The position numbers and the translations under genes were made by a program. A DNA stretch of 62,980 bases from an uncultured bacterium (GTDB lineage Bacteria; Patescibacteriota; Minisyncoccia; Phycocordibacterales; UBA9973): contig CAIMAO010000014.1 of the NCBI GenBank assembly GCA_903838985.1, positions 1 through 62,980 of the forward strand, in the 5' to 3' direction. The stretch's first letter is position 1; each line of letters begins with the position of its first letter. A model generated the notes under the pieces. It had not been told where the DNA came from and ran no database searches. It was given only the letters and a program-made list of their open reading frames with translations. Below are positions 15,691 through 62,980 of the stretch, piece after piece.

Positions 15691-17193
15691 ATGCAGGATA
15701 GAATTTTCTATTCAATTTGTTTTGGTTTCATAAGTGGAATATTTTTACGATCGCTAACCTTTGTTGATGTTTATTTGGTTGTTTTATTTGGAATAATTGC
15801 GCTTGTTTTGCTTTTCTTTTTTAAATTTATATCACCCCGTCACTCGCGAGCGACAGGGTCGAAAAATAAGTGGGGAATTATTTTGGGAATTTTTATTTTG
15901 TCTTTTTCTTTTGGAATATTTAGATTTCATTTAGCAGATGTTCCAGCACCACAAATTTTTGAATCTCAAGTGAATCAAAAAGTTATTCTTGTTGGAAAAA
16001 TTGTAGACGAACCAAGTTTGTCAGAAAATAATCAAAAATTGGTTGTAGAAATAGTAGAAAAAGATAGTAAAAGTAAAATTTTATTGTCATCTAATTTAGA
16101 TGAAGTTTATAAATATGGAGATGAAATAAAATTTGAAGGAAAATTAGAAAAACCAGATAATTTTATGACAGATCAAAATAAAGAATTTGATTATATAAAT
16201 TATTTACGTAAAGACGGCATATTTTATTCTGAAAGGTATCCTAAAATTGAAATATTATCACACGAGAATGGGAATTTTATAAAAAGTGCGCTATTTTCTG
16301 TTAAAGAATTTTTTATAAATAAAATTAGTTTGGTAATACGTGAACCAGAATCTTTATTTATGAATGGATTGATTTTGGGGGAGAAGTCTTCTTTTGGTCA
16401 ATCTTTAAGACAAAGTTTTGTGAATACTGGGACGATACACATAGTCGCACTTTCTGGATACAATGTGACTATCGTTGCTGAATGGATTATGAAAATTTTT
16501 GCTTTTTTACCTAAAAATCTAGGTATTTTTGCTGGAATTTTGGCTATTATTCTTTTTGTTTTAATGACAGGTGGGTCTTCGACGGCTATTCGTGCGGGCA
16601 TAATGGCTACACTTGCACTAGCCGCTCGTCTTATAGGGAGGAATTATGATGTGACAAGGGCACTTATTTTAGCGGGTGTTTTTATGGTTTTGATAAATCC
16701 ATTTATTCTTGTGTTTGATGTTTCGTTTCAACTTTCTTTTATCGCGACTGTCGCTGTGATTTATTTTTCTCCTAAATTAGAAAAACATTTTCTATGGGTC
16801 ACAGATAAATTTGGCTTGAGAGATATTGTTTCTGTCACATGTGCTGCATATATTTTTGTTTTACCTTTTATTCTTTATAAAATGGGTAATCTTTCTCTGG
16901 TTGCTTTGCCTGCGAATACTTTGATTTTGCCATTTATTCCGTTCACAATGATTTTAGGATTTTTGACTGGTTTTATTGGTATTATTTCGTATGTATTTTC
17001 AGTTCCATTTGGATATATATCTTATTTGTTTTTGCATTATGAGCTTTCGATAATAAGTTTCTTTTCAAATATACCTTTTGCGTCACTTACGATACCTGAT
17101 TTTCCACTTATTTTTACAATACTAATTTATGCCTATTTTATTTATAGACTTTTTGGAAGGAGTATAAAAAGTTTTTTTACTGAGCCTTTTTAA
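15691..17193 (+). CDS. comEC: ComEC/Rec2 DNA-uptake channel, N-terminal (OB/DUF4131-like plus competence) part
   Basis: 500-aa polytopic membrane ORF. GTIHIVALSGYNVTIV and GGSSTAIRAGIMA resemble the competence domain. No MBL domain in this ORF. Confidence 0.75.
   Translation: MQDRIFYSICFGFISGIFLRSLTFVDVYLVVLFGIIALVLLFFFKFISPRHSRATGSKNKWGIILGIFILSFSFGIFRFHLADVPAPQIFESQVNQKVILVGKIVDEPSLSENNQKLVVEIVEKDSKSKILLSSNLDEVYKYGDEIKFEGKLEKPDNFMTDQNKEFDYINYLRKDGIFYSERYPKIEILSHENGNFIKSALFSVKEFFINKISLVIREPESLFMNGLILGEKSSFGQSLRQSFVNTGTIHIVALSGYNVTIVAEWIMKIFAFLPKNLGIFAGILAIILFVLMTGGSSTAIRAGIMATLALAARLIGRNYDVTRALILAGVFMVLINPFILVFDVSFQLSFIATVAVIYFSPKLEKHFLWVTDKFGLRDIVSVTCAAYIFVLPFILYKMGNLSLVALPANTLILPFIPFTMILGFLTGFIGIISYVFSVPFGYISYLFLHYELSIISFFSNIPFASLTIPDFPLIFTILIYAYFIYRLFGRSIKSFFTEPF
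15833..15875 (+). repeat. G/C-rich island translated in-frame within comEC (SPRHSRATGSKNKWG loop)
   Basis: caccccgtcactcgcgagcgacagggtcg...gtgggg stands out from AT-rich flanks. It shares gcgagcgac with family-C cores. Confidence 0.5.
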
Positions 17194-41342: not shown

Positions 41343-41927
41343 TTAAACTCTTTCTACATAATCACCAGTTTCTGTGTTTACACGGATTATATCTCCTTCT
41401 TCTATAAACATTGGTGTGCTTAATGTTGATCCATTTTCTAAAGTAATAATTTTATTACCACTTTTAGAAGTATCTCCACGGACAGCAGGTGGGGCCTCTT
41501 TTACTTTAAATTCCATTTTTATAGGTAGAGTTATTTTTATTATTTTTTCTTCGTCATCATCATCCCATACTAGAGCTGTGACATTTCCATTTTCTTTGAA
41601 AAATTTTCCAGCATCACCTATTAAGGAAGAGTCTAATTTAAATCGATTTTTAGGGTCATCTGGATTGCAGAACCAATATTCACCCTTGTTATGATAAAGG
41701 AATTTTATATCTTTTTTCTCTATATCTGCTTCTAGGGCAGAGTCAGAGACGTGAAAAGTAGCAGAAATTGTCTTTCCAGATATTAAACTTCGTAATTTAA
41801 CTTGGTTTTGAGGCTTTCTTTGTTGTGTTCTTGCGACATGAGAATCTACCACTTCACAAGGTTCATCAGCATAAATTATTATTTTCTTCTCTCTAATTTC
41901 ATTGTATTGAAGTTGTGACATAAACAA
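41343..41927 (-). CDS. efp: Elongation factor P
   Basis: Three-domain EF-P-like length. The N-terminal pattern EVVDSHVARTQQRKPQNQVKLRSLISGK aligns with the EF-P KOW domain. The start may be 41921 (MSQLQY). Confidence 0.8.
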   Translation of the reverse strand: MFMSQLQYNEIREKKIIIYADEPCEVVDSHVARTQQRKPQNQVKLRSLISGKTISATFHVSDSALEADIEKKDIKFLYHNKGEYWFCNPDDPKNRFKLDSSLIGDAGKFFKENGNVTALVWDDDDEEKIIKITLPIKMEFKVKEAPPAVRGDTSKSGNKIITLENGSTLSTPMFIEEGDIIRVNTETGDYVERV

Positions 41928-41980
41928 TATATTAACAGATTAATTTATAAAATCAAATTTTTTACCAAAACCAAAGAAAC

Positions 41981-42088
41981 AACTCCAGAAACAATATTTT
42001 TGTCGGTACGGATTTTTTGAAGCTTAAAAAATCCTGAAATTGGCTCGCCGTCGCTCGCCAAACCCCTTAAAAATATTTTTCTGGAGTT
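41981..42088 (+). repeat. Family-A nested-hairpin element, copy A1 (between recA and efp)
   Basis: 20-bp outer stem with a bulged C (aactccagaaaCaatattttt / aaaaatatttttctggagtt) around a 67-nt core. The first 40 nt of the core are identical to copy A2. Confidence 0.9.
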
Positions 42089-42093
42089 ATTTT

Positions 42094-43131
42094 TTATTCT
42101 TCTGCAAACTTTTTACGAATTTCTTTTAAGATTTGATCTGCTATTTTGTGGTTTTCTTTTAAGAAAGTTCTTGTGGAATCATAACCCACACCTAATTTTA
42201 CTTTTTCAGCTTTTTCTCCACTTGGCATATAGAAATATGAATTACCAGTTTTTTCTACTATTTTAAATTTCTCTCCTAATGCAATAATTTCACCTTCTTT
42301 GGAAATACCTTCATTATAAATAATATCAAACTCTGTTTGTTTAAATGGCGCAGCAACTTTGTTTTTTACTACCTTCACACGAGTACGACTTCCGACGATA
42401 TCTTCTCCTTTTTTAATTTGTGCAATTTTTCTGATATCAAGTCTTACAGAAGTGTAAAATTTTAATGCTTTACCTCCTGGAGTAGTTTCAGGATTGCCAA
42501 ACATAACTCCGATTTGCATTCTTATTTGGTTTATAAAAATAACTACAGTTTTAGATCTAGCTACAATGGCTGTGAGTTTGCGAAGTGCTTGAGACATAAG
42601 TCTTGCTTGTTTACCTATATGATAAGCACCCATATCTCCCTCTATTTCATCCTTTGGTGTTAGTGCAGCGACAGAGTCTACGACAATGACATCAATTTTT
42701 CCTGTTCGTACTAGACTCTCAACTATCTCGAGTGCTTGTTCTCCTGTATCTGGTTGAGAGATAAGCAAGTCATCTATATTTACTCCAAGTTTTTTTGTAT
42801 AATCTGGGTCCATTGCATGTTCAGCATCTATATATGCACAGATTCCTCCGAGTTTTTGTGCTTCAGCACATATATGCAACGATAGGGTAGTCTTGCCTGA
42901 AGATTCTGGTCCAAATATTTCAATTATTCTTCCACGTGGTATTCCTCCGACACCGAGAGCCATATCAAGACCCAAAGAACCTGTAGGTATAGTATTTATA
43001 TCTACTTTTGGTGAATCACCAAGTTTCATAATTGAGCCTTCTCCAAATTTTGCTTGTATTGCTTTTAATGTATCATCAAGCATTGATACACCTACTGACT
43101 TATCTTCTTTTTTTTCTTTTTTCTTTACCAT
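42094..43131 (-). CDS. recA: Recombinase RecA
   Basis: GPESSGKTT Walker [10 protein letters not shown] Walker B, and loop motifs. Start set at [12 protein letters not shown] (ATG 43131). The longer track ORF runs into repeat element B1. Confidence 0.95.
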
Positions 43132-43141
43132 AAATTTTTTT

Positions 43142-43273
43142 GAATTATAAAACTTGTTGCAGGTGTAATTTTTGAGAGATATTGCGCAGGCTGTCGAGCC
43201 GAGCATAGCAAATTTTCAGTAGAAAATTATGCGTGTCTATCAAAAACTATACCAAAAAAAAGTTTTGTAATTC
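43142..43273 (-). repeat. Family-B nested-hairpin element, copy B1 (upstream of recA)
   Basis: Outer arms gaattataaaactt / aagttttgtaattc. The core 43181-43236 in reverse complement matches B2: acacgcata, then a 7-bp hairpin, then tgctatgctcggctcgNcagcctgcgcaat. Confidence 0.8.
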
Positions 43274-43281
43274 TGATATTA

Positions 43282-43626
43282 TTAATATATTAACTTATAA
43301 ATTTTTTCATCATTATTGCCAAATTTGTCTTTGGCTTTGATGCTAATGACATTATAACCTAAAGAAAGGATAATTGTCTCGTCAAAATTTCCCCTCTGGT
43401 CTATTGATATAGGACGGTCATTTAAGGTTAAATTTACTGCATTTTTTGCATTTCCTGTTATTTCTAGAATATTGTTTGTGACCTTACTTCCATCCACAAT
43501 GTTTACGTTTTTTATTTTCACACCAAAGATTAAAGCTTCAGATCTAAAGAAAGCGTAAATGACAATGAAAAGCAAAAAAATTGAAATTCCAACTATTTTT
43601 ACCAATTTTTTTGCATCTGTATTCAT
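43282..43626 (-). CDS. Small membrane-anchored protein with beta-sandwich-like ectodomain, function unknown
   Basis: 114-aa ORF with TM helix IVGISIFLLFIVIYAFF. Sits between repeat elements B1 and C1. Confidence 0.4.
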   Translation of the reverse strand: MNTDAKKLVKIVGISIFLLFIVIYAFFRSEALIFGVKIKNVNIVDGSKVTNNILEITGNAKNAVNLTLNDRPISIDQRGNFDETIILSLGYNVISIKAKDKFGNNDEKIYKLIY

Positions 43627-43638
43627 TGTGTTTATTTT

Positions 43639-43727
43639 TGCGGGGTTTACTTTTTTGAGCTGGTCTGGTTGAGCCCTTAGGACTTAATGAGGGCGACCCG
43701 AGGACCCGAAAAAAAGTAAACCCCGCA
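43639..43727 (+). repeat. Family-C nested-hairpin element, copy C1 (immediately downstream of ftsK)
   Basis: 18-bp perfect outer stem tgcggggtttactttttt / aaaaaagtaaaccccgca. Core: gagctggtctggttgagc, a variable hairpin, then gcgacccgaggacccga. Confidence 0.9.
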
Positions 43728-43737
43728 GGAAATTTCA

Positions 43738-45984
43738 TTACATTACATTTTCTCCATTTTCATCATGTGAAATTTTTTCTAAAACTTCTCTTGGTTTAGC
43801 ACCATCACCAGCACTTATTACTCCACGTTCTTCCAATTTATCCATAAGTCGTGCGGCACGAGCATATCCTAGTTTTAATTTTCTTTGCAGATATGAGGTA
43901 GATGCCTTTCCAGCTTCTATCACACATTGTCTAGCTTCTTCATACATTTCATCTTCATCCTCGTCTTCATCTGCAAGGCTACTTTCAAAAATACTTTTAT
44001 CAGCTGATATAGAACCCGTAGTCAAAGATATTTCATCGGTTATTTCATCTTTGTAAGTGTCGACTAAATATTTTACAACTTTTTTGACTTCTGTTTCTGA
44101 AATAAATGCACTTTGTAAACGTTCAGGTTGAGCTTCACCAGAAGAATAGAGCATATCTCCAGCACCTAGTAGTTTTTCTGCTCCACCGGCATCTAAAATA
44201 GTACGGGAGTCTATTTGTGAAGAAACCTTTAAGGCTACACGGGCAGGGATGTTTGCTTTAATGAGTCCAGTAATGACATTTACTTCTGGACGTTGGGTGG
44301 AAAGTATCAAATGTATGCCGACAGCTCTAGACATTTGTGCGAGTCGTACGATGGCTGACTCTAATTCTCTTGGATAAGCAGTCATAATATCTGCCAATTC
44401 GTCTATTATTATCACTATGTATGGCAAACGATCTGCATCTACTTCTGTTTGAGTGCCATCAGCACCTATTTTCATCTTCTTTGGGTTTTTGCCAAATATA
44501 TTTGTGTGATAAGACTCAATATCTCTTACAGATTCTGCTTCTAATATATCGTAACGGCGATCCATTTCTTTTGCTGCCCATTTCAAAGCGAGTATTGTTT
44601 TCTTTGCTTCAGTTATGACTGGGGTAAGTAAATGTGGAATGTTGTTGTAGAGTGTCAGCTCTACACGTTTTGGATCTATTAATATTAGTTTCAAATCATC
44701 TGGCCCATTTCTGTAGAGCAGGGAAGCTATTATAGAGTGTATTGTCACAGATTTTCCAGAACCAGTCGTTCCTGCTACTAATGCATGTGGCATTTTTGCT
44801 AAGTTTCCAAAAACAGCCTTTCCAGATATTCCACGACCGAGTGCTATTGTGAGAGGTTTTTGAGAATTTTGGAATTTAGCATCTGAAAGTAATGTAGCGA
44901 GTCCAACAATAGATTTTGATTTGTTTGGTATTTCTATACCTACGAGTGATTTGCCTGGTATAGGTGCTTCTATACGTATTGGATGTGCTGCCAAAGAAAG
45001 TGCGAGGTCATTTTGTAAACCTACGATGCGTGAGAGTTTTACTCCTTCAGCTGGTTTTAATGCATAACGTGTGACAGTTGGTCCGACGGTTATTTCATCC
45101 ATCTCTACTTCAATACCGAAGTTTGCAAGTGTGCGTTTAATAATATTTGCATTTGCTTTTATATCTCCTGTATTTGGTTTTCCTTTATCTTCTTCAAGTA
45201 ATGAAAGTGGGGGAGGGACATAGGTAGAGATCAGTCCACTTTTTCTTTTTTTGATAGGTATATCTTCCTCTTCTTCATTGGTTGCTTGTCCTGAGCTTGT
45301 CGAAGGATTTTTATTTACCATGCCGAGGACTTTTTTAACTTTTTCTGCAGAGGAACTTTTTTCTTCCTCTTCTGTAATAGATTTTTGTACTTCTTTTATT
45401 TCATTTTCATTTAAAGTGTTTTTAGTGTTTTCTATTTGTATTTTTTTACCAGTAAAGAAACTCCAAATTTTAACAAAAAATGGAGCTAGGTTTGGCTTCG
45501 CGTCAAACATTATTATTATTGAGATTATTAAAATTGCTCCGAGGAAAATTATACTTGCATAAACATCAAAAAGAGATACGAGTGGCTTAGATAAAATTTT
45601 CCCTAGTAGCCCCCCAGAATGGTTGAGTGATGCGACGTCTACCATGCCAAGTCCTGATAGTAAAAACATTGTTGCACTTATTGCACGTGTCCATCCTAAG
45701 TTTGGAGTTTCTGATTTTATAAAAGAAGATCCAAGCAGTAAAAAAAGAATTGGAAGTAATATATACCCGACACCGAGCATATAGTCTAAAAATTCATAAA
45801 TATTTCTTCCAGCCATACCTCCCATATCAAACATCGACATCAAAAGAAAGATAGTTAGAACAAAAAAAAGAACTGCCCATATTCCGTGTTTCGTTTCAGT
45901 TTTCAAACCAGTTGCGAAAGATAAATTTTTACCAAAAGTTTCTTTATTATTTTTTTGTTTTTTCTGTTTTTCTTTTTTTGCCAT
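43738..45984 (-). CDS. ftsK: DNA translocase FtsK/SpoIIIE
   Basis: N-terminal TM segments, low-complexity linker, motor with GTTGSGKSV and IIIDELAD, and a C-terminal gamma wHTH (YLQRKLKLGYARAARLMD). Confidence 0.9.
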   Translation of the reverse strand: MAKKEKQKKQKNNKETFGKNLSFATGLKTETKHGIWAVLFFVLTIFLLMSMFDMGGMAGRNIYEFLDYMLGVGYILLPILFLLLGSSFIKSETPNLGWTRAISATMFLLSGLGMVDVASLNHSGGLLGKILSKPLVSLFDVYASIIFLGAILIISIIIMFDAKPNLAPFFVKIWSFFTGKKIQIENTKNTLNENEIKEVQKSITEEEEKSSSAEKVKKVLGMVNKNPSTSSGQATNEEEEDIPIKKRKSGLISTYVPPPLSLLEEDKGKPNTGDIKANANIIKRTLANFGIEVEMDEITVGPTVTRYALKPAEGVKLSRIVGLQNDLALSLAAHPIRIEAPIPGKSLVGIEIPNKSKSIVGLATLLSDAKFQNSQKPLTIALGRGISGKAVFGNLAKMPHALVAGTTGSGKSVTIHSIIASLLYRNGPDDLKLILIDPKRVELTLYNNIPHLLTPVITEAKKTILALKWAAKEMDRRYDILEAESVRDIESYHTNIFGKNPKKMKIGADGTQTEVDADRLPYIVIIIDELADIMTAYPRELESAIVRLAQMSRAVGIHLILSTQRPEVNVITGLIKANIPARVALKVSSQIDSRTILDAGGAEKLLGAGDMLYSSGEAQPERLQSAFISETEVKKVVKYLVDTYKDEITDEISLTTGSISADKSIFESSLADEDEDEDEMYEEARQCVIEAGKASTSYLQRKLKLGYARAARLMDKLEERGVISAGDGAKPREVLEKISHDENGENVM
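45288..45307 (-). repeat. G/C-rich 20-mer in the ftsK linker, identical to the argS copy
   Basis: The reverse complement of gtcctgagcttgtcgaagga is tccttcgacaagctcaggac. Translated here in a different frame (PSTSSGQAT). Confidence 0.9.
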
Positions 45985-46042
45985 ACTGCTATTTTATCAC
46001 AAAACGTGGATCTAAAAAAGAAAGGAAATAATTTCTTCCTTT

Positions 46043-46141
46043 GCGTAATGTTATGTTTTACGAGCTGGTCTGGTTGAGCTCGCTCTTTTAAAAAATTTTG
46101 TGCGAGCGACCCGAGGACCCGAGTAAAATATAAGATTATGC
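46043..46141 (+). repeat. Family-C nested-hairpin element, copy C2 (upstream of ftsK)
   Basis: 19-bp outer stem gcgtaatgttatgttttac / gtaaaatataagattatgc (two G-U pairs, one mismatch). Same 18-nt and 17-nt core blocks as C1, with a different inner hairpin (gctcgc...gcgagc). Confidence 0.85.
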
Positions 46142-46149
46142 AAAAATAT

Positions 46150-46258
46150 TTCCGCAAGGTTATTAAAAAAAATAGTCCGAATATTTTTTTACTAAAAAAT
46201 TTCTCAAGACTCGCGCCGTCGCGCTCCGTAGCCTATTTTTTTCAACAACCTTGCGGAA
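46150..46258 (+). repeat. Diverged family-A-like nested-hairpin element, copy A3
   Basis: 26-bp outer stem ttccgcaaggttattaaaaaaaatag / ctatttttttcaacaaccttgcggaa; both mismatches become G-U on the minus strand. The core contains ctcgcgccgtcgcgctc (compare A2 ctcgcaccgtcgcgctc). Confidence 0.75.
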
Positions 46259-46289
46259 AAAATGTCCTTAATGATTTCCTTTAAAGGAC

Positions 46290-46317
46290 TTGCAAAAAGT
46301 GTAGGTGTGTATATAAT
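46290..46317 (+). promoter_or_regulatory. Promoter TTGCAA-16 nt-TATAAT inside the annotated 5' end of the 46262 ORF
   Basis: TTGCAA at 46290-46295 and TATAAT at 46312-46317. An in-frame ATG at 46325 lies 7 nt downstream (leaderless-type spacing). Confidence 0.5.
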
Positions 46318-46324
46318 GGACAAC

Positions 46325-47242
46325 ATGTTAGGGGAAAATAAAAACATAAAAGACACCCCACAAAGCTCTCAAAAAGACACTTCTGCCATGTCTGCAAATC
46401 TTAGTAATGGCAGCCCAAGTGTTTCTCTCTCCACTATCTCACATTGGCATAATTTCTCTGGTTCTTATAAAAAGACAGACAAGCTCGTCACTGCACTTTA
46501 CATGGTCACAGACACTATGGAAAAAGAAGAACCAATGCGCCTAAAGTTAAGGACATTAGGAACAGAAATTCTATCGGACATACACAATATATCAAAGACT
46601 ATCCCTGATCTAGGAAGGATAGAACAAGTGTTGTCCTTTTTAAATATTGCTTACGATCTACATATGATTTCTGAAATGAACCACAGTATTTTAAAGAAAG
46701 AGTTTTTAGAGTTAAGAAAATCTATTAATGAATTTAAAGCACATAAAAACAATTGGCTTCCAGATTTTATGCTGGAGCCTGCAGAAAATTTTGAGCAAGA
46801 AGAATCTTCTATTTCTTACGAAAATGAATTAAATTCTTCTAACGGACATAAACAATTTAAGACCTTGTCCTTTATAAAAGGACATAGTGTTTCTCCTATA
46901 AAATCTGGCACAAGAATAGGTGTCCAAAAGGGAAGTACTTTGCTCACAGCTTTGAATAAAGTTGCTACATCAAAAGTTTCAAATGGGAGTGAAGGAAAAG
47001 AAGCTTTTGAGAACCTAAAAAATAAAAGACGTGAAGAGGTAATAGCTATCATAAAAGAGAAGAAAAATACTACAGGGATAGACGGAGCTACTATAACGGA
47101 CATCAGAAATATGGCTAAAGGAGCTCTTGTTTCTTGTGGAGAAAAAACATTACAAAGGGAACTTGTTTCTATGGTGTCCGATAGAATTTTATATCGGACA
47201 GGCTCTAAACGTTGGAGTAATTATTTTATAGTTGCTAAATAA
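46325..47242 (+). CDS. Hypothetical protein with helical N-domain and C-terminal winged-helix-like region
   Basis: ORF open from 46262. Start preferred at MLGENKNIKD because of the promoter spacing. The C-terminus ITDIRNMAKGALVSCGEKTLQRELVSMVSDRILYRTGSKRWSNY looks wHTH-like. Confidence 0.4.
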   Translation: MLGENKNIKDTPQSSQKDTSAMSANLSNGSPSVSLSTISHWHNFSGSYKKTDKLVTALYMVTDTMEKEEPMRLKLRTLGTEILSDIHNISKTIPDLGRIEQVLSFLNIAYDLHMISEMNHSILKKEFLELRKSINEFKAHKNNWLPDFMLEPAENFEQEESSISYENELNSSNGHKQFKTLSFIKGHSVSPIKSGTRIGVQKGSTLLTALNKVATSKVSNGSEGKEAFENLKNKRREEVIAIIKEKKNTTGIDGATITDIRNMAKGALVSCGEKTLQRELVSMVSDRILYRTGSKRWSNYFIVAK

Positions 47243-47305
47243 AACACCAGTCGCCAGATTGTTTATTTTAAAAGCTACTGACCCTTTTGTTTTTAAAAGC
47301 ATATC

Positions 47306-47409
47306 AGCACCAAATTACTAATTTAAAAACACGCATATTTGCTTGCTAGCAAATTGCTATGCTCGGCTCGTCAGCCTGCGCAATGTTTTAAAATCAGTAA
47401 TTTGGTGCT
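47306..47409 (+). repeat. Family-B nested-hairpin element, copy B2
   Basis: 19-bp outer stem agcaccaaattactaattt / aaatcagtaatttggtgct (1 mismatch). Core blocks 47329-47337 and 47355-47384 are shared with B1. The inner hairpin differs but is still paired. Confidence 0.85.
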
Positions 47410-47499
47410 TTTAGGGGAGGTAGTTAGGATATCTATTTTGCACCTAAAAACCCTTAAATCTCGTATATATTTATAAGGTAATTATTGTCCATTTTTTAG

Positions 47500-47528
47500 T
47501 TGCTTTTTGGCATGAAATATGCGATAAT
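47500..47528 (+). promoter_or_regulatory. Promoter TTGCTT-17 nt-GATAAT ~620 nt upstream of the S-layer-like gene
   Basis: Spacing counted directly from the sequence. The predicted start (~47535) abuts the first stem of the structured element. Confidence 0.45.
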
Positions 47529-47535
47529 TATCCCC

Positions 47536-47614
47536 GTGGAATAACTCATTTCATTTCGATGAAATTCTCAAATTTTGTTATAGCTTAAAGGCTAAAAATT
47601 TGCGAGTTATCCAC
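47536..47614 (+). ncRNA. Candidate structured RNA (three-way junction) at the 5' end of a long untranslated leader
   Basis: P1 gtggaataactc/gagttatccac (11 bp, one bulge). P2 atttcat-ttcg-atgaaat. P3 caaatttt...aaaatttg with an apical tagc/gcta pairing. Confidence 0.35.
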
Positions 47615-47710
47615 ATAATATATTGCTCTATCTTTGAGCTATATATTATAATGTTTATGTGAATGCAAATCGCACATTATTGAATGTGTTTTGCATAAGT
47701 AAATGCATTT

Positions 47711-47785
47711 GTTTTCGTTCACGATTACATCGAAATAATCGTGAACGAAAACAACCAATCAAAGGTCGCAAATTTTTGATTGGTT
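47711..47785 (+). promoter_or_regulatory. Two adjacent perfect hairpins (17 bp and 11 bp) in the untranslated region
   Basis: gttttcgttcacgatta-catcgaaa-taatcgtgaacgaaaac is followed directly by aaccaatcaaa-ggtcgcaaatt-tttgattggtt. No T-run follows. Confidence 0.6.
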
Positions 47786-47937
47786 TAATCCATTTAAGCT
47801 TTTCACAGAGCTTTGATGGATCAAGGTTAGGTCATTGAAAACAGTTGTGTTTAAGATGTTAAAATCTTTTTCACAATAATAACCCCGTTAAAAATTTTGT
47901 AAAAAGAATTTTGATTCGGGATGTTTTCATTCTCAAT

Positions 47938-47989
47938 TTGAAGTCAAAAAAATTAAAACTTTTTTGTTTCAGATTGAAGTCAAAAAAAT
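47938..47989 (+). repeat. Direct repeat of a 16-mer ttgaagtcaaaaaaat (two copies, 36 nt apart)
   Basis: Exact copies at 47938-47953 and 47974-47989, ~160-200 nt upstream of the S-layer-like gene. Confidence 0.8.
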
Positions 47990-48144
47990 CTGTTCATTAT
48001 TAAATTGTTCACCGCATTATTATTTGTTTTAAATTATAAATTATAGGTGATCAAAAATAATGATAGACAAATACGCTTTTAGTTTTGTTCATTCATTAAA
48101 AGGTTTGAACAAGTCGAAACTAATTAATGGCGTAGAAAAAAATT

Positions 48145-51174: not shown

Positions 51175-51197
51175 TTTGAATTGTTAAGGATATAAGA

Positions 51198-51285
51198 GTT
51201 TCTCAAAACTTAAAATTGAAAGTCTGATTGACTAAATCAATTCCAAAAACCCCGATCGCAATTTAAAGCGACGGGGTTTTTGCGT
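51198..51285 (+). repeat. 88-nt cassette-boundary repeat, copy R1 (palindrome plus intrinsic terminator)
   Basis: gtttctcaaaacttaaaattgaaagtctgattgactaaatcaattccaaaaaccccgatcgcaatttaaagcgacggggtttttgcgt. Starts 23 nt after the surface-protein stop. Confidence 0.9.
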
Positions 51286-51320
51286 TGGTTGGTTAAAATT
51301 TTTATGTTAAAATTATAATA

Positions 51321-51962: not shown

Positions 51963-52013
51963 ATGACAATTAAAGTATAACAAAACGTATTTTCTTGTCA
52001 AGCATTTTGTAGA

Positions 52014-52101
52014 GTTTCTCAAAACTTAAAATTGAAAACCTGATTGACTCAATCAATTCCAAAAACCCCGATCGCAATTTAAAGCGACGGGGTTTTTGCA
52101 T
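52014..52101 (+). repeat. 88-nt cassette-boundary repeat, copy R2
   Basis: Near-identical to R1, R3 and R4 (a few substitutions by manual alignment). Confidence 0.9.
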
Positions 52102-52129
52102 TTTTATCTCACCCCATAATTGATAGGGC

Positions 52130-52156
52130 AGCCCCCTACACCAGGTGTAGGGGGCT
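52130..52156. repeat. REP-like palindrome P1 (agccccctacacc-a-ggtgtagggggct)
   Basis: Perfect 13-bp arms. Lies 18 nt upstream of the RayT-like ATG. Contains GTAG/CTAC. Confidence 0.9.
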
Positions 52157-52173
52157 ATGTTATAATAATAAAT

Positions 52174-52875
52174 ATGACATACAGAAAAGTTTCTTTATCG
52201 TCTGGAGAATATTTTCATATTTTTAATAGGGGGAACAGTAAACAGAAAATTTTTCTTGATGAAAAAGACAGAGAGCGTTTTGTAAAACTTTTGTATTTAT
52301 CTAACTCGAAGAAGAGCGTTAATTTCCGTGATGATATTGTAAGTCAGAAAATTGACGCTTTTGATTTTGATAGGGGAGAAACTCTTGTTTCGATTGGTGC
52401 TTGGGTCTTGATGCCAAATCATTTTCATATATATTTAACGTCCCCTACACCAGGTGTAGGGGACGAAGAGATGAAGAGAAACGAGGAAAATAAATCTAAT
52501 ATTACATTATTTGTACATAAACTTTGTATGAGTTATGTAAAATATTTTAATAAAAAATATGACAGGACTGGTGCGCTTTTTGAAGGACCTTTTAAATCTG
52601 TTCATATAGAAAATGATGGCCAAGCGAAATATCTTTTCTCGTATATACACTTAAATCCTTTGAAACTTATTGATCCAAATTGGAAAGAAAATATTAATAA
52701 AAATATTGATATCACTTTAAAATATTTAGATAATTACAATTGGAGTAGTTATAATGATTATTATGGAATTTTAAGAAAAGAAAATAAAATTTTACAACGA
52801 AAAGATTTTCCAGATTATTTTTCTGATATTAAAAGTTTTAAATCAGAAATTTTTTCTTGGTTAAAATATGAGTAG
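52174..52875 (+). CDS. IS200-like Y1 (HUH) transposase of the RayT/COG1943 type
   Basis: YFHIFNRGN, WVLMPNHFHIYL (HUH), KYFNKKYDRTGALFEGPFKS, YLFSYIHLNPLK (catalytic Tyr region), and NWSSYNDY. Start set at MTYRKVSL. Confidence 0.7.
   Translation: MTYRKVSLSSGEYFHIFNRGNSKQKIFLDEKDRERFVKLLYLSNSKKSVNFRDDIVSQKIDAFDFDRGETLVSIGAWVLMPNHFHIYLTSPTPGVGDEEMKRNEENKSNITLFVHKLCMSYVKYFNKKYDRTGALFEGPFKSVHIENDGQAKYLFSYIHLNPLKLIDPNWKENINKNIDITLKYLDNYNWSSYNDYYGILRKENKILQRKDFPDYFSDIKSFKSEIFSWLKYE
52441..52463. repeat. REP-like palindrome P2, in-frame inside the transposase gene
   Basis: tcccctacacc-a-ggtgtagggga is translated as SPTPGVG directly after the HUH motif. Confidence 0.9.
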
Positions 52876-52883
52876 TTTAATTT

Positions 52884-52908
52884 TTCCCCTACACCAGGTG
52901 TAGGGGAA
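52884..52908. repeat. REP-like palindrome P3
   Basis: ttcccctacacc-a-ggtgtaggggaa, 9 nt after the transposase stop. Confidence 0.9.
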
Positions 52909-52963
52909 AGTCGTTTTGTTTTGCAATTTGCGGTTTTTATTTTGCTTGTGGTATTATAAAAGT

Positions 52964-53224: not shown

Positions 53225-53233
53225 TTAACTAAA

Positions 53234-53321
53234 GTTTCTCAAAACTTAAAATTGAAAGTCTGATTGACTCAATCAATTCCAAAAACCCCGATCGCAATTT
53301 AAAGCGACGGGGTTTTTGCGT
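53234..53321 (+). repeat. 88-nt cassette-boundary repeat, copy R3
   Basis: Starts 9 nt after the preceding stop codon. Palindrome tgattga-c-tcaatca plus terminator ccccgatcgc-aatttaaa-gcgacggggttttt. Confidence 0.9.
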
Positions 53322-53351
53322 TTCCTCCCGCTCCATATCGATATTGATAGT

Positions 53352-53382
53352 GCAGCCCCCTACACCAGGTGTAGGGGGCTGC
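53352..53382. repeat. REP-like palindrome P4 (perfect 15-bp arms)
   Basis: gcagccccctacacc-a-ggtgtagggggctgc. Preceded by attgatagtg, as P1 is by attgataggg. Confidence 0.9.
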
Positions 53383-54182: not shown

Positions 54183-54187
54183 GTATA

Positions 54188-54276
54188 GTTTCTCAAAACT
54201 CAAAATTGAAAGCCTGATTGACTCAATCAATTCCAAAAACCCCGATCGCAATTTAAAGCGATGGGGTTTTTTGCGT
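54188..54276 (+). repeat. 88-nt cassette-boundary repeat, copy R4
   Basis: Starts 5 nt after the DUF2283 stop. Four differences from R3, including one extra T. Confidence 0.9.
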
Positions 54277-54302
54277 TTTTATCTGTATGATATAATAAAA
54301 TT

Positions 54303-54689: not shown

Positions 54690-55184
54690 ATGGAAAATAA
54701 AGATAGTAAGGAAATGATGAAATATGTTAACTATGCGATAGGGGCAATAGTGATTATTTTAATCGTTGTTTTGGTGGTTTTAAAGGTCCGAAGTTCTAAA
54801 GAAGCAGCTTTGAATGAGGTTGCTCCAGTGGTTGTAGACACTACAAAGGCCACAGAAGACACAAGCAAAGGCAGTGTGAACTCTGGCAGTAAAGCAAAGC
54901 CTATGAGCTATGCTGATGCTTTAATAAAGTATGCTGATAAGAGAATTCAGCTTGATAAAGATTGTCAGGCTTTCCCAAACAATGTCACTTATAAAGACAA
55001 TACAGGCATAATGATAGATAATCGTGCACCTGTAGCTCGTACAGTAAAAATAGGCACAGAATATTCTGTCAAAGCTTATGGTTTCAAGATTATTGTTTTA
55101 CCTGATACATATCTAAAATCAAAAACTATTTTAGTTGATTGTGACAAATCTCAAAACGTAGCAACTATCCTAGTACAGGAATAA
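54690..55184 (+). CDS. Membrane-anchored protein, function unknown
   Basis: 164-aa ORF with a single TM helix AIGAIVIILIVVLVVL. Confidence 0.4.
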   Translation: MENKDSKEMMKYVNYAIGAIVIILIVVLVVLKVRSSKEAALNEVAPVVVDTTKATEDTSKGSVNSGSKAKPMSYADALIKYADKRIQLDKDCQAFPNNVTYKDNTGIMIDNRAPVARTVKIGTEYSVKAYGFKIIVLPDTYLKSKTILVDCDKSQNVATILVQE

Positions 55185-55948: not shown

Positions 55949-58900
55949 ATGAAGAATAAGATATTGTTTATTTTTATTCTAATTTGTTTGTTTTCTATTT
56001 GCGTTAAGGTTTCAGCAAATGAAATATGTTCTCCAACAGGGTATAGTGTTGTTACGGTCAATGGTATATTTACTGATGAAAAGGGGGCGAAATATAATAA
56101 AAATCAATTATCTTATAAACTTGCGGCAACCTATAATAATGAACCGATAAACATTGATTATCTGTACAACCAAACCCACCTTCTCGGTGTTGGGGATTTG
56201 ATTGATGCTGTAAATCAAGGACTTTTTGACCAAAAATCTGATTATGATTTGGTGGAAATGATAAATGATGCAAGTCAAAAAGTTAAAACCCAAAAACTTT
56301 TACTCGTTTCTCATTCACAGGGTAATTTTTACGCAAATAATTTTTATGACAAAGTAGCAGATCAACAAGGTGGTGTTCCTTCTAAATCTATTGGAGTTTA
56401 TAGTGTTGCTTCTCCAGCAAATCGTGTTGCTGGCGGAGGAAAATATCTAACTTCAGATACAGATAAAGTCATAGCTTCTGTGGTGGGTCGTTTCATCAAA
56501 ATTTTACCACCAAATATTCATATACCTTTGCAAGAAGCCGATGGTAATGGGCATAGTTTTTCAGATGTTTATTTAAAATATCAAAGTGATAGGATTATTT
56601 CTGATATAAAATCTTCTCTTAATAATTTAAAAGAAAATGATGAACAAGAGGCAGATCAGCCTTGTATTTCTGCACCAGAATTGACAATAAATCATAAAAT
56701 ACAAGGTGTTTTATTGAATTCTGCAGATTTTGTAATAAACAATACAAAAAGTGCGACAGTGTATGCCGCAAATACTTTATATAATACGACGCTAGCTGTG
56801 GGTAATGTTGTGAAAGGTTTACTAGCCACAGCTGTAGAAAGTTTACCAAATACTAAAAGTGTGACTACGTTGCCTGTTGTTGTCCCAGAAAATAAAAATA
56901 CAAATGTTGCAAACCAAAATATTCCAAAAGAAACGACAAAAGTTGTTGATAAAAATATAATTAAAGAAACAAAAAATACTGAAACAACCAAGGTAGTAAA
57001 AGTTGCTGATGTTTCTCCAGTTTTAGACAAAAAAGATGTTTTGAGCAACGTCATAAAACCCGTTGTTTCTAATGTTGTTTCTTTTGGAGGCGGTGGAGGT
57101 GGGGGGAGTGTCGTCGTCGTTCAGCCAGAAGAAAAACCAGTAATAAAAGATGAAAAGAAAGATGATCCAGTAGTGCCACCACCAGTAGAACCTGTTCCAG
57201 ATGTCACTTCACCGGTCATTACTATTTTAGGGAATAACCCAGAAGTAGCAATTACAAATTCTGTTTATGTTGATGCTGGAGCTACTGCCCTCGATGCTGT
57301 AGATGGTGTGCGTGAGGTGGAGAGTACTGGCACTGTTGATACATCTAGAAGAGGAAGTTATATCATTATATATAAAGCTTCAGATAAGTCTGGAAATATT
57401 GCGACAGCTACTCGTACGGTGAATGTTGCAACTTATAAATATGTTCCTAAATATAAATTTGGCCTAGATAATGGTGATGGTAATTATTGGCAGAATTGGG
57501 CATTTAATGGATCAAATGTTTATGATTGGGCTGACAGTTATGTAGATAATTATTTACATGAACAATTTAAAATTCAAACTTATGCTGGAGGTTTTTGGTG
57601 TTCGCAATGTTTACAGCGTGGTGTTTTTAAACATAATCCTCAAGAAGGTTTTGAAAGATCAGATCTCTTAACTTCTGGTCTTGAAAATAATCCACAAAAT
57701 AATGAAATTGATATGATTTACAATGTTGTTATTCAATGGGATTCTGCTGGTTATACTTATAAAATTACAAATGGTGATAATGTTTATGCGACAGGACGCA
57801 CAGATGTTGCGAATTTAAATAAAGATATGTGGGTCGGTTGGGATGGTTCCTTTAATGATTTTAAGAATTTTCCTGCAGGAAATTGGACGGGTTCTTCTGG
57901 TTGGTACCCATTTGGTCTCACAGGCGGGGGAAGTATGATTTTGCAACCATTTCCAATTTATAAAGAGCCTACCTCTGCAAGTCCTTCACTTTCTCTTATA
58001 AATAAAGGTGTATATGCAGGAGTAGGTGTGACGCCGACATATGGTAGGACGAATTTAACAGCATTTAATTTTCAAGTAATTTATACAGATAAAAATAATA
58101 TTGCACCACAAAATGTAAAACTTCATGTTGTTAACACAGTTACAGGGTTTTCTTTTCCAGAAGTTTCGATGACAAAGATATCTCAGGGCGGGGATGTTTT
58201 AAGTGATGGAAATTTTGCAAACGGAGAAATATATACTGCAAATAATATTTTGTATGACACAGGAATTTATAAATATTATTTTACCGCAAATGATGGTTCT
58301 GGAAATTTGGTAGAAATGCCTTACAACGAAAGATTAAATTTTGGTGTTGTGCCTTCCACTTACACTTATATTCCTCAATATTCTTTTGGGACAGAAAATG
58401 GAGATGGAAATAATTGGCAAGTTTGGTCTTTTAATGGATCAAATGTCTATGATTGGTCAGACACGTATGTTGATAATTATTTGCATGAACAATTTAAACT
58501 TCAAGATTATCCTGGGGGATTTTGGTGCTCGCAATGTTTACAAAGAGGTATATTTAATCACGATCCACAAAAAGGTTTTGAAACTTATGATCTTCTCACG
58601 TCTAATCTGGAACACAATCCACAGAATAATATGATTGCCGTTACTTATGATGTATCTTTGCAATGGGACGCAACTGGTTATACATATACTATTTCTCATG
58701 ATGCTACTGTTGATGCCACTGGCCATACAGATGTTGCAAACGTGAATGAAAATATGTGGGTTGGCTGGGATGGATCGTTTAATAATTTTAAAACTTTTCC
58801 TTCTGGACGTTGGCAAGGTGCTTCGGGCTGGTATCCGTTTGGTTATACAGGTGGGGATAGTATGATTTTGAAACCTTATCCAGTTTATGTTTATTCTGGC

Positions 58901-59581
58901 CCCATTCTTAGTAAACAAAAGTCTGTTACTTCTTTTAATTTTATGAATTTAGTTCCAGAAGTTGACGGAGTTCTTGATGAAAATAATCATACTATTTCTA
59001 TGACTGTTTCATTTGGGACAGATGTGAAAACTCTTGTGCCGACTATTGGAATTTCTCTAAGTGCGTCTGTTGTTCCAAATAATAATGTTGTTCAAGATTT
59101 TACTAATCCTGTCACTTACACCGTTACAGCAGAAAATGGTTCTATACAAAATTATATTGTGACAGTAAATGTTGCTCCAGATCCAAACCCAGTACCTGCA
59201 CCAGTTCCTGATCCCGTTCCAGCTCCAGATGTTACTCCGCCTTCTATTACAAGTTATACACTTAATGGTGTTGCTGATAATGTGACAATAAATCCAGCTA
59301 AAACACCTGTTTCTGTTGTTTTAAATTCTAGTGAAAATGTAAATTGGATGTCTATAAAAATTGAAAATCAGAATGATATAGGAATTTACAAAACATTTCT
59401 GTCTGGAAATGGTTGTGTTGATGGTACGAATACTTGCAGTAAAACTTGGGATGGGGCTTTGACTAAGGGAGATATTCAAAATGGTGCTTATCATATTAAA
59501 GTTCACATGAAAGATCCAGCAAATAATGAATTTAATGATTATATTCTCCCTTATGTAATAAATGTAGACACTTCTATTTAA
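55949..59581 (+). CDS. Giant secreted protein (1210 aa): lipase-like alpha/beta-hydrolase head, Pro-rich linkers, Ig-like segments, duplicated ~190-aa Trp/Cys-rich module
   Basis: Signal peptide. LLLVSHSQGNFY nucleophile elbow. PVITILGNNPE...DAVDGV Ig-like segment. Tandem modules begin near nt 57431 and 58358 (NGDGN.WQ.W.FNGSNVYDW.D.YVDNYLHEQFK...GGFWCSQCLQRG). Confidence 0.5.
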   Translation: MKNKILFIFILICLFSICVKVSANEICSPTGYSVVTVNGIFTDEKGAKYNKNQLSYKLAATYNNEPINIDYLYNQTHLLGVGDLIDAVNQGLFDQKSDYDLVEMINDASQKVKTQKLLLVSHSQGNFYANNFYDKVADQQGGVPSKSIGVYSVASPANRVAGGGKYLTSDTDKVIASVVGRFIKILPPNIHIPLQEADGNGHSFSDVYLKYQSDRIISDIKSSLNNLKENDEQEADQPCISAPELTINHKIQGVLLNSADFVINNTKSATVYAANTLYNTTLAVGNVVKGLLATAVESLPNTKSVTTLPVVVPENKNTNVANQNIPKETTKVVDKNIIKETKNTETTKVVKVADVSPVLDKKDVLSNVIKPVVSNVVSFGGGGGGGSVVVVQPEEKPVIKDEKKDDPVVPPPVEPVPDVTSPVITILGNNPEVAITNSVYVDAGATALDAVDGVREVESTGTVDTSRRGSYIIIYKASDKSGNIATATRTVNVATYKYVPKYKFGLDNGDGNYWQNWAFNGSNVYDWADSYVDNYLHEQFKIQTYAGGFWCSQCLQRGVFKHNPQEGFERSDLLTSGLENNPQNNEIDMIYNVVIQWDSAGYTYKITNGDNVYATGRTDVANLNKDMWVGWDGSFNDFKNFPAGNWTGSSGWYPFGLTGGGSMILQPFPIYKEPTSASPSLSLINKGVYAGVGVTPTYGRTNLTAFNFQVIYTDKNNIAPQNVKLHVVNTVTGFSFPEVSMTKISQGGDVLSDGNFANGEIYTANNILYDTGIYKYYFTANDGSGNLVEMPYNERLNFGVVPSTYTYIPQYSFGTENGDGNNWQVWSFNGSNVYDWSDTYVDNYLHEQFKLQDYPGGFWCSQCLQRGIFNHDPQKGFETYDLLTSNLEHNPQNNMIAVTYDVSLQWDATGYTYTISHDATVDATGHTDVANVNENMWVGWDGSFNNFKTFPSGRWQGASGWYPFGYTGGDSMILKPYPVYVYSGPILSKQKSVTSFNFMNLVPEVDGVLDENNHTISMTVSFGTDVKTLVPTIGISLSASVVPNNNVVQDFTNPVTYTVTAENGSIQNYIVTVNVAPDPNPVPAPVPDPVPAPDVTPPSITSYTLNGVADNVTINPAKTPVSVVLNSSENVNWMSIKIENQNDIGIYKTFLSGNGCVDGTNTCSKTWDGALTKGDIQNGAYHIKVHMKDPANNEFNDYILPYVINVDTSI

Positions 59582-59775: not shown

Positions 59776-59921
59776 GGTACCGCAAAGAAAGTAGGTTTAT
59801 CTATATTTAGATAAGTAAATCCTATTTAGTGGGTCGATATTCGCCGAAGAGGCGAAGAATTACTTGCGGCGAAAGCCCGCCTTGACTTGCGAGTCAATGA
59901 GCGAGGCAGGCCGTTTTTTTT
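59776..59921 (+). promoter_or_regulatory. Structured leader with terminal intrinsic terminator upstream of rplJ (candidate L10 leader/attenuator)
   Basis: Long-range helix ccgcaaag/cttgcgg. Hairpins ttatcta/tagataa and ttcgcc-gaaga-ggcgaa. A G/C hairpin gcccgcc...ggcaggc contains ttgact-tgcg-agtcaa and is followed by T8 (59914-59921). Confidence 0.5.
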
Positions 59922-59953: not shown

Positions 59954-60436
59954 ATGTTACAAAAATCAAGAAAAGAAGAGATGATAAAAGGCCTAGAAAA
60001 GGCAATCAAAGAATCTGAATCTGTAGTTTTTGTAAACTTTCATGGATTAAAAGTTGGCGATGAAACAATTCTTCGTCGAGGTTTAAGAGATCAAGGAGTT
60101 GATTATAAAGTATCCAGAAAGACATTACTAAAACGTGCACTTTCCAAAAAAGCTGAAGGAGAAATTCCAGAGCTTTCTGGTGAAGTTGCTATAGCATATT
60201 CAAAAGATGAGGTTGCTTCTTCTCGCGAAATTTACAATTTTCAAAAAGCTCACAAAGGTGTTTTAGAAATACTTGGCGGAATTTTTGAAGGTAAATTTGT
60301 GAATAAGGATAAGATGATAGAAATAGCTACTATCCCATCTAGGGAAGTATTACTTTCTAAAATTGCATTCTTGCTTAAATCTCCTATGCAACGTTTAGCT
60401 ATCGCAGTTAATGAAGTTGCAAAGCTTCGCCCATAG
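59954..60436 (+). CDS. rplJ: 50S ribosomal protein L10
   Basis: Typical L10 length and pattern (VFVNFHGLKV..LR..LR..G...KV.K.TL). Directly upstream of rplL. Confidence 0.9.
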   Translation: MLQKSRKEEMIKGLEKAIKESESVVFVNFHGLKVGDETILRRGLRDQGVDYKVSRKTLLKRALSKKAEGEIPELSGEVAIAYSKDEVASSREIYNFQKAHKGVLEILGGIFEGKFVNKDKMIEIATIPSREVLLSKIAFLLKSPMQRLAIAVNEVAKLRP

Positions 60437-60860: not shown

Positions 60861-60871
60861 TTAACAAATAT

Positions 60872-60983
60872 AAAAAACCAAGAACAAGATTTTTGTCGGT
60901 ACGGATTTTTTGAAGCTTAAAAAATCCTGAAATTCTCGCACCGTCGCGCTCGAAACCCCTTAAAAATCTTTTCTTGGTTTTTT
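60872..60983 (+). repeat. Family-A nested-hairpin element, copy A2, acting as the rplL terminator
   Basis: 22-bp outer stem with a bulged C (aaaaaaccaagaaCaagattttt / aaaaatcttttcttggtttttt) followed by a T-run. 67-nt core; the first 40 nt are identical to A1. Confidence 0.9.
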
Positions 60984-61020
60984 GTTGTTTTTTGTAAAAA
61001 AGGTGGTATTATGTACGCAT

Positions 61021-62847: not shown

Positions 62848-62980
62848 TAACAGGAAATTTAAGGGCGTATGGTGGATGCCTTGACTTTAAGAGGCGATGA
62901 AGGACGTGGCGTTGCTGCGATAAGCTTCGGGGAGGTGCTTAGCTACCTTTGATCCGGAGATTTCCGAATGGGGAAACCCT
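62848..62980 (+). rRNA. rrl: 23S ribosomal RNA, 5' end (partial, runs off the window)
   Basis: gggcgtatggtggatgccttg...aggcgatgaaggacgtg...gataagcttcgggga...gatccggagatttccgaatggggaaaccc matches the universally conserved 23S domain I start. The exact 5' end is approximate. Confidence 0.85.

Follow-up and report, generated by a model that had tools for sequence, protein, structure and literature searches.

The spacers around recA and ftsK in a 62,980-nucleotide (nt) contig of an uncultured bacterium (GenBank assembly GCA_903838985.1, contig CAIMAO010000014.1, positions 1 to 62,980; hereafter the window) are filled with nested hairpin elements, which were assigned to the families A, B, C (Ca and Cb) and D. 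Based on its RecA and RecJ homologs, the window (G+C content of 33%) was placed in a metagenome-assembled genome of Candidatus Nomurabacteria (Parcubacteria/Paceibacterota, candidate phyla radiation, CPR). A 218-kb scaffold in ENA (ERZ18625109, BUCK21-1 scaffold_16) contains the same sequence. Comparison with related loci indicates that these families, together with others seen in relatives, are probably small, noncoding, hairpin-shaped and non-autonomous mobile DNA of about 85–130 nt. The copied unit was the whole foldback, with AT-rich terminal inverted repeats around a bulged, G/C-rich core and an apical hairpin that varies. Gains and losses of copies occurred at precise positions, both in AT-rich spacers and at permissive codon positions, where the copies are in frame and translated.

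The original prediction, made from the letters of the window alone, stated that every spacer from efp to 47.4 kb is occupied by a nested hairpin, and this was the case, with A1, B1, C1, C2 together with A3, and B2 filling the successive spacers. In total, eight elements were located in the 63-kb window, and are listed here with a smaller hairpin insert in comEC.

12355–12456, + strand: D, family-D foldback in frame in recJ, with AT-rich arms of 24–26 bp around a roughly 50-nt GC-rich core
15832–15858, + strand: comEC hairpin insert, 27 nt, G/C-rich, in frame and encoding SPRHSRATG
41974–42095, + strand: A1, family-A foldback in the spacer from the recA stop to the efp start, core at 42002–42068
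43150–43265, − strand (inverted): B1, family-B foldback between the stop of a gene for a 114-amino-acid (aa) protein and the recA start
43639–43727, + strand: C1, family-C foldback in the spacer from the ftsK stop to the start of the 114-aa gene, core at 43657–43709
46044–46140, + strand: C2, second family-C copy, on the upstream side of ftsK, core halves within 46062–46122
46149–46259, + strand: A3, divergent family-A member in the divergent spacer between ftsK and a hypothetical gene, with a 27-bp outer stem
47306–47409, + strand: B2, family-B foldback 3′ of the hypothetical gene, outer stem of 26 bp
60863–60993, + strand: A2, family-A foldback directly past the rplL stop codon, core at 60895–60961

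Similar G/C-rich sequences had also been suspected in or beside five other genes. Three of these suspicions were well founded, namely those concerning recJ (an in-frame insert of 31 aa), comEC (the 27-nt hairpin insert) and rplL (the A2 copy). The G/C-rich patch examined in argS turned out to be ordinary coding sequence with no insert, and ileS of the window lacked an insert at the position where relatives carry one.

The three core families claimed for the region were indeed repeated, with 0.00 matches expected from dinucleotide shuffles in each case: the 18-nt 5′ half of C occurred exactly twice in the window, the 31-nt B core also twice, and the A GC block was found in both A2 and A3. A1 and A2 were 81% identical over 127 nt. 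The assignment of A3 to family A was upheld at the GC block, with 65–76% identity to A1 and A2 over 34 nt, but the element was otherwise divergent and its alignment patchy. Six of the eight longest short-range inverted repeats of the window were these elements and the recJ insert, and the folding of all elements was better than that of shuffled sequences (z from −3.4 to −8). The elements were short (85–130 nt) and noncoding, with terminal inverted repeats as paired arms of 13–27 bp. Together, the repeat statistics, the rank of the inverted repeats and the folding z-scores confirm the initial observation.

In all foldbacks, an A/T-rich outer stem enclosed a G/C-rich core that was conserved and inner hairpins that varied. 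Family C was a single bulged hairpin that consisted, from the outside in, of an AT-rich stem, a tandem G·A, a GGUCU/GGACC helix, a bulge, a GGUU/GACC helix and a variable apical hairpin. Its core halves pair with each other with bulges, neither half being self-complementary; in C1 they are arranged as GAGCTGGTCTGGTTGAGC, hairpin, GCGACCCGAGGACCCGA within a perfect outer stem of 18 bp. C2 had core halves identical to those of C1 but shared neither inner hairpin nor outer stem with it. Among C1, C2 and the C copy of a relative (locus L008), each inner hairpin was unique and unrelated to the other two, yet paired. Families A and B were three-way junctions, composed as in the A1 core of an outer stem, an AT-rich hairpin (hp1) and a GC-rich hairpin (hp2), and the module CTCGGCTCGNCAGCCT was common to both. 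In B1, the 31-nt 3′ core block was located at 43181–43211 and the repeat in common with B2 at 43181–43243. Outer stems had been described as specific to each copy, which was true for C2 as compared to C1, but not for A1 and A2, whose stems were related and showed compensatory changes, nor for C1, whose stem resembled that of a C copy at a different site in a relative.

Related genomes were compared at about 90 loci (recA loci L005–L008 and L093–L096, and 80 recJ loci from GTDB genomes, L013–L092), amounting to 1.54 Mb after removal of duplicates. The same cores recurred across these loci, at other sites and in both orientations. L007 (GCA_023267215.1) had spacers of 8 nt between ftsK, the 114-aa gene and recA, in contrast to C1 and B1 in the window, while the spacer between ftsK and the 114-aa gene was absent altogether from L005 and L008. 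The spacer between the 114-aa gene and recA held B in the window, C in L008, L093 and L095, Cb in L005, and nothing in L007. The spacer between the hypothetical gene and ftsK held A3 and C2 in the window, an A in the opposite orientation and a long B variant in L093 and L095; L005 had B with a short C there, and L007 an unrelated family. Between recA and efp, where the window has A1, L093 and L095 had a Cb joined to an A truncated exactly in the hp1 loop. True orthologs of C1 and B2 were present in L093 and L095 as hairpins with compensatory changes, and in the B copies orthologous to B2 (L005, L093 and L095) hp1 and hp2 differed and were still paired. L093 carried two near-identical C copies in adjacent spacers, alike over at least 105 nt including the outer stems, which indicates that the copied unit is the whole foldback. 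The recA–ftsK cluster itself recurred, with the same five spacers filled again in several relatives. The pattern of empty and filled sites that the original prediction proposed to look for in relatives was thus present and plentiful, which supports the first of its options, a mobile element.

Further observations were made in the same spacers. L007 had no A–D elements in the ftsK-upstream and efp-upstream spacers, where another multi-branched G/C-rich foldback family was found (1987–2199 and 6438–6565 of that locus; motifs ACAACCCC...CCCCTCTCC/GGAGAGGGG...GGGGTTGT). As compared to the window and L008, efp was inverted relative to recA in L005, L007, L093 and L095, the boundary being the A1 spacer. 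Two short contigs, L003 and L004, encoded identical RecA and diverged totally from the edge of the A1 core (about 41990–42000 of the window), which reflects either a strain rearrangement or an assembly chimera caused by the repeat; they were left out of the evidence.

The spacer between the gene of the HIT family and recJ was 36 nt long and empty in most of about 60 loci. In at least 14 species, it contained a complete palindrome at one shared junction, between the start codon of the HIT gene and the −10 box of recJ. These fills represented at least four families, i.e., Cb (in both orientations), Ca, A and one further family, and their AT-rich flanks gave an ambiguous reading of target-site duplication. 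Elsewhere in the relatives, elements adjoined argS, ileS, the HIT-family gene, sod, rplL and type IV pilus genes. The clustering of elements at DNA-metabolism genes, to which attention had been drawn, was therefore real as a cluster, but a link to function was not supported: since elements lie equally beside genes unrelated to DNA metabolism, the cluster is best read as a permissive block of separately transcribed genes.

When RecJ of the window was compared with solved RecJ structures and 119 homologs, the D insert corresponded to 31 aa in frame, between DHH-LP and LPKAYAILNP. Among 79 loci, this codon position was empty in 53, held D in five and C in three (both orientations), a coreless AT-rich stem in one, and small G/C-rich hairpins of about 24–30 nt in 17. 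The D-filled stem differed from the bare one in having a 51-nt core cleanly inserted at the midpoint of the palindrome, and at this D core/stem junction, the single readable one, the target-site duplication was at most 1 nt. The closest relative of a D-bearing RecJ was almost always an empty RecJ (e.g., 90% identity, vs. about 84% among D-bearing proteins), so the presence of D does not follow relatedness. Nearest-neighbour identities were used for this comparison because a neighbour-joining tree of RecJ was too star-like and poorly resolved for gains and losses to be counted. C was also found in frame in ileS of L033 and L071. In-frame inserts stay translated, and across recJ and ileS both C and D occurred in either orientation. 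D copies near argS and Cb copies before recJ were located just 5′ of start codons, outside open reading frames (ORFs). The 27-nt insert of comEC was missing from two relatives; inserts like it occupy the recJ site of the 17 species mentioned above. Two candidate traces of the insertion process at recJ were rejected. The LPK...LPK direct repeat flanking the insert is not a target-site duplication, because LPHxxLPR is already present in empty alleles and the LP..LP pattern is thus ancestral. The outer stems are not an inverted duplication of the target either, as neither arm of the insert resembled the empty allele.

A census by fuzzy matching of the cores in the 1.54 Mb gave a total of 59 copies, or about 1 per 26 kb with all families pooled; one of seven B matches (L058) looked spurious and was excluded.

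Family A: 15 copies, all intergenic, at 10 or more distinct sites
Family B: 6 copies
Family Ca: 8 copies
Family Cb: 16 copies
Family D: 14 copies

An unbiased scan for AT-rich stems around GC-rich loops returned the same families and others. Between species, the D core was 87–98% identical, as compared to 73–83% for the flanking recJ DNA and 59–86% for the stems. The 65-nt A core was almost invariant in 16 copies, including the junction bases. About a dozen A, Ca, Cb and D elements had the termini AGAAA(N)T...A(N)TTTCT. By orientation, with counts that are small and partly non-independent, B was in sense to the adjacent gene in all six copies, A was mixed and C mostly antisense-folding in the sense strand (about 10 vs. 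3). The A and D cores were absent from the viral sequences of IMG/VR, and the 37 matches to the C pattern in that database were due to chance, in GC-rich contigs without an AT-rich foldback.

The filled and empty sites, the re-use of one junction by unrelated families, the presence of both orientations, the in-frame copies, the local duplication of whole units and a spread independent of relatedness all fit non-autonomous palindromic mobile DNA. In such elements, the conserved core, with its bulges, tandem G·A and invariant junction bases, would be the module read by an enzyme acting in trans, probably on the folded single strand, and stems and apical hairpins would be free to vary provided that pairing is kept. 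The apical loops of existing hairpins may be one favoured landing place, which would lead to nesting, and a role as terminators or RNA-level elements may have been acquired secondarily by some copies. The idea that the mobile element targets hairpins at terminators was supported in part, by the coreless recJ stem of one lineage and by the Cb in the hp1 loop of the truncated A, but most fills were whole palindromes with stems, in spacers free of such hairpins when empty, or in codons.

The sole candidate enzyme in the window was encoded about 5 kb from the element cluster and resembles the tyrosine transposases (RAYTs) associated with repetitive extragenic palindromic (REP) sequences.

52174–52875, + strand: RAYT-like Y1 HUH transposase gene, with motifs HIFNRG...PNHFHIYL...YVKYFN...GALFEGPFKS

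The protein was 46–49% identical to those of L014 and L092, which pass the cutoff of Pfam Y1_Tnp (PF01797), and its homologs had a weak match to NCBIfam REP_Tyr_transpos, below the cutoff. The window protein itself had no match in Pfam, and none in the PDB by single-sequence or profile search. The gene was flanked by simple hairpins, CCCCTACACCAGGTGTAGGGG (within 52119–52156 and 52872–52909), with a further copy about 470 nt downstream (within 53343–53380) and one in frame within the gene (52428–52465), where it results in a 14-aa insert, TSPTPGVGDEEMKR, right after the HUH motif. RAYT homologs abound in the clade, 6,795 of the scored candidates having E ≤ 1e-10, and 77 metagenomic RAYT loci nearly always had a flanking simple palindrome of 19–25 nt that differed from RAYT to RAYT. 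Given that these palindromes are unlike A–D, the clade has classical REP–RAYT pairs, of which A–D are not the cognate repeats. RAYT was thus rejected as the cognate enzyme of A–D, since its flanking hairpins differ and A–D are not enriched near RAYT genes, and it seems doubtful that the RAYT-type HUH transposase at 52174–52875 is what mobilises them. No transposase adjoined any A–D copy in the related loci searched.

The region of the RAYT-like gene also contained a 94-nt repeat in four copies with 91–96% identity (51194–51287, 52010–52103, 53230–53323 and 54184–54277). Three copies lie just 5′ of a NYN-domain gene, the RAYT-like gene and an ORF at 53344, and the fourth about 400 nt upstream of an ORF at 54690. 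Each ends in a small terminator-like hairpin (AAAAACCCCGATCGC...GCGACGGGGTTTTT) and most precede ORF starts, so the array looks cassette-like.

Several results weigh against A–D being mobile DNA. No transposition event or excision junction was observed in the loci compared, and no clear target-site duplication was found. No autonomous parent, in the form of a gene-separated pair of core halves, was detected in 1.6 Mb of related loci (partial genomes). None of the 77 RAYT loci had flanking hairpins resembling the A–D cores, and only three A–D copies occurred in 353 kb of RAYT loci, none of them beside a RAYT, which makes them rarer there than in the recJ loci. The cores were conserved even though RecJ is only 70–85% identical across species; a purely selfish element would not usually show such conservation, which is in keeping with a function at the host level or as RNA. 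Likewise, family A was always intergenic with its near-invariant 65-nt core, and B was always in sense to the adjacent gene. The scattered distribution at recJ could result from homologous recombination between species, not from transposition, and the RecJ tree is poorly resolved.

These constraints bear on an alternative that the original prediction had listed, according to which the elements are primarily functional structured RNAs (elements of untranslated regions, processing or protein-binding sites, or small RNAs) and spread by duplication of a useful module. Four covarying pairs in hp2 of family A among 16 copies, conserved unpaired junction bases between the helices, and inner hairpins that are unrelated in sequence and always paired agree with selection on a structure, as do cores more conserved than the neighbouring coding DNA, the sense orientation of B in 6/6 cases and the intergenic location of A in 15/15. 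Folding was also strand-asymmetric through G·U pairs (−49.5 vs. −41.8 kcal/mol for C1 and −35.6 vs. −21.7 kcal/mol for C2), yet the better-folding strand of B and C was mostly not the one transcribed with the neighbouring genes. A and C occurred in both orientations with respect to transcription, even at one site, and the in-frame copies of C and D in recJ and ileS point either way. Unrelated families replace each other in the same spacers among close relatives, many of which are empty there, and this would not be expected of a required cis-element. A scan of the elements against Rfam 15 yielded no relevant match at the gathering threshold or even at E ≤ 10, with only spurious hairpins of the miRNA type. 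Manual mapping of family A as a hammerhead ribozyme gave a near-miss (GGUA|C, CUGAAR and CGAAAC around the three-way junction) that was rejected: position 8 was A in 7 of 16 copies, position 9 was U, and stem I does not close beside the putative cleavage site. A primary role as RNA is therefore unlikely, because of the copies in both orientations and in frame. An added RNA-level role of some families, especially A and B, is possible in view of the covariation in hp2 and the orientation of B, and could explain the conservation of the cores across species.

A bolder version of the mobile-DNA reading holds that the cores are recognition modules of a hairpin-specific enzyme for single-stranded DNA, which by preference places entire foldbacks in the apical loop of another hairpin. 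The enzyme would be either a RAYT-like HUH protein acting on non-cognate substrates or a host factor, and nested structures would be built stepwise. We regard this as rather improbable; if true, the elements would represent a class of loop-targeting mobile DNA that has persisted throughout an entire CPR family and is tolerated even within essential genes. In a more radical variant, family A, with its hammerhead-like three-way junction, could move via an RNA intermediate.

The third option named at the outset was that the cores are DNA-uptake signals, like the DNA uptake sequences of Neisseria or the uptake signal sequences of Haemophilus, lying as inverted pairs in terminators and marking self DNA for uptake by ComEC and type IV pili. 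The lineage does encode ComEC and type IV pilus ATPase and platform proteins (according to Pfam labels), the cores are conserved over a family-level clade, and both orientations and ORF-internal copies occur, as for uptake signal sequences. However, known uptake signals are 9–12-nt words present about once per kb; the 59 copies in 1.54 Mb, about 1 per 26 kb, are far too few. In addition, the conserved units are 30–65 nt long with structured bulges, they are gained by precise insertion of blocks of 50–110 nt, not by uptake-driven point mutation, and four or more unrelated cores coexist within one genome. This makes a function in uptake highly improbable.

That the elements are intrinsic terminators of the usual kind or palindromes arisen by chance, immobile and diverging by descent, has a next to negligible probability: hairpins form easily in AT-rich genomes, and A2, B2 and C1 do sit past stop codons with T-rich sequence after them, but the identical GC-rich cores of 18–31 nt at unlinked sites (0.00 expected), the copies upstream of genes, in divergent promoter regions (C2 and A3) and inside ORFs, and the clear filled/empty pattern are at odds with it, a scan for consensus intrinsic terminators flagged none of the elements (a weak test, as loops were limited to 3–8 nt), and the repeat statistics and insertion polymorphisms refute it as the sole explanation.

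Palindromic mobile elements are known as a kind. Rickettsia palindromic elements (RPEs) are palindromic repeats lying in frame in housekeeping genes and translated as tolerated loops (PMC10969869). Like A–D, they are palindromic, noncoding and about 100–150 bp long, occur as several coexisting families in a reduced AT-rich genome, are found both in spacers and in frame in unrelated housekeeping genes, and have no known transposase. The likeness described here is one of architecture, RPEs being from Alphaproteobacteria and A–D from CPR/Patescibacteria. The in-frame translated palindrome typical of RPEs was met here in recJ, in ileS (L033 and L071), as the mini-hairpin of comEC and as the hairpin in the RAYT gene. 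Set beside RPEs, the traits of A–D include a G/C-rich bulged core shared across species with variable stems and apical hairpin, nesting in hairpin loops, and the re-use of one insertion point by different families.

REPINs are defined as two inverted REPs, each an imperfect palindrome, with a spacer (PMC3337134). REPs and REPINs share with A–D that they are hairpin-forming, G/C-rich, non-autonomous and thought to be handled as folded single strands, and that clear target duplications are missing (at most 1 nt at the one readable D junction). Moreover, the genome of the window encodes a RAYT (Y1 HUH) flanked by inverted hairpins, and such genes are very common in the clade. Nevertheless, A–D are not the hairpin that flanks this RAYT (CCCCTACACCAGGTGTAGGGG in the window), the halves of C are not palindromes, A and B are three-way junctions, and C and D are not extragenic (recJ, ileS), A being extragenic in 15/15 copies. 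The A–D cores were also shared across species, whereas the RAYT-flanking hairpins varied from RAYT to RAYT.

In yeast mitochondria, GC clusters (e.g., GC42) show presence/absence between strains, loop-biased substitutions that point to constraint on the hairpin, and merging of palindromic units (PMC4478555). GC42 carries AG as its target-site nucleotides and a route via RNA has been proposed for it, the mobilising mechanism being unknown (PMC4478555). These clusters and the double-hairpin elements of fungal mitochondria resemble A–D as G/C-rich hairpins in AT-rich compact genomes, although theirs is an organelle and not a free bacterial genome, and the unit of A–D includes long AT-rich outer stems.

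Classical miniature inverted-repeat transposable elements (Correia/NEMIS, RUP, ERIC and Nezha) are likewise noncoding foldbacks of <300 bp with terminal inverted repeats, intergenic hot spots, occasional in-frame copies and possible effects as terminators or promoters, and A–D agree with them in showing insertion polymorphism between related genomes. In contrast to these elements, A–D had no demonstrable target-site duplication, no parent insertion sequence with matching ends was found in the related loci searched (partial genomes), and their centre, not their termini, was most conserved. Integron attC sites are comparable by mechanism only, in that paired boxes with extrahelical bases flank a variable, always-paired centre. 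attC sites are recognised as folded single strands. Neither an integrase, a cassette array nor an R/L box consensus was seen for A–D, which are dispersed. Compared to known systems, A–D are unusual in a centre more conserved than the ends across species, a variable paired apex, and hairpin loops as likely landing sites.

The genes that delimit the spacers of the recA–ftsK cluster are as follows.

41343–41927, − strand: efp
42094–43131, − strand: recA
43282–43626, − strand: gene of a 114-aa membrane protein
43738–45984, − strand: ftsK
46262–47242, + strand: conserved hypothetical gene

B2 was followed by an unusually long noncoding stretch of about 0.7 kb (47410–48144), which matched no Rfam family at the gathering threshold. 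It contained a perfect 19-bp hairpin at 47709–47754 (TTGTTTTCGTTCACGATTA...), and L095 had a similar motif, TCGTGAACGAAAAC, in its equivalent region. Positions 59800–59920 contain a structured, G/C-rich leader (GCGGCGAAAGCCCGCC...GGCAGGCCGTTTTTT) 5′ of a gene at 59954 that is probably rplJ; the leader may be an L10-leader-like element, and no Rfam family was matched at the gathering score. A 1,210-aa ORF (55949–59581) had an internal direct repeat of 300 nt with 76% identity (57431–57730 and 58358–58657), and the 5′ end of a 23S rRNA gene, at 62849–62980, was cut by the end of the window.

Full-text searches of the literature returned no paper that pairs Patescibacteria or Parcubacteria with REPs, REPIN/RAYT or palindromic elements; for miniature inverted-repeat elements and the candidate phyla radiation, the one match listed concerns diversity-generating retroelements, not hairpin elements of this type. 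Members of the CPR/Patescibacteria are regarded as extremely streamlined, and the presence of at least five selfish hairpin families would imply that mobile DNA still shapes their genomes. The elements re-use a few spacers and are found in many species, with in-frame copies in recJ, ileS and comEC; they would explain length polymorphisms of marker proteins and probably some assembly breaks. Because RAYTs are so abundant in the clade (>6,000 homologs), pairs of enzyme and substrate could be assayed with oligonucleotides and independently of culture. The architecture of the elements, an invariant bulged core with helices that are free to vary while staying paired, would then serve as a natural dataset on what a hairpin-recognising enzyme reads.

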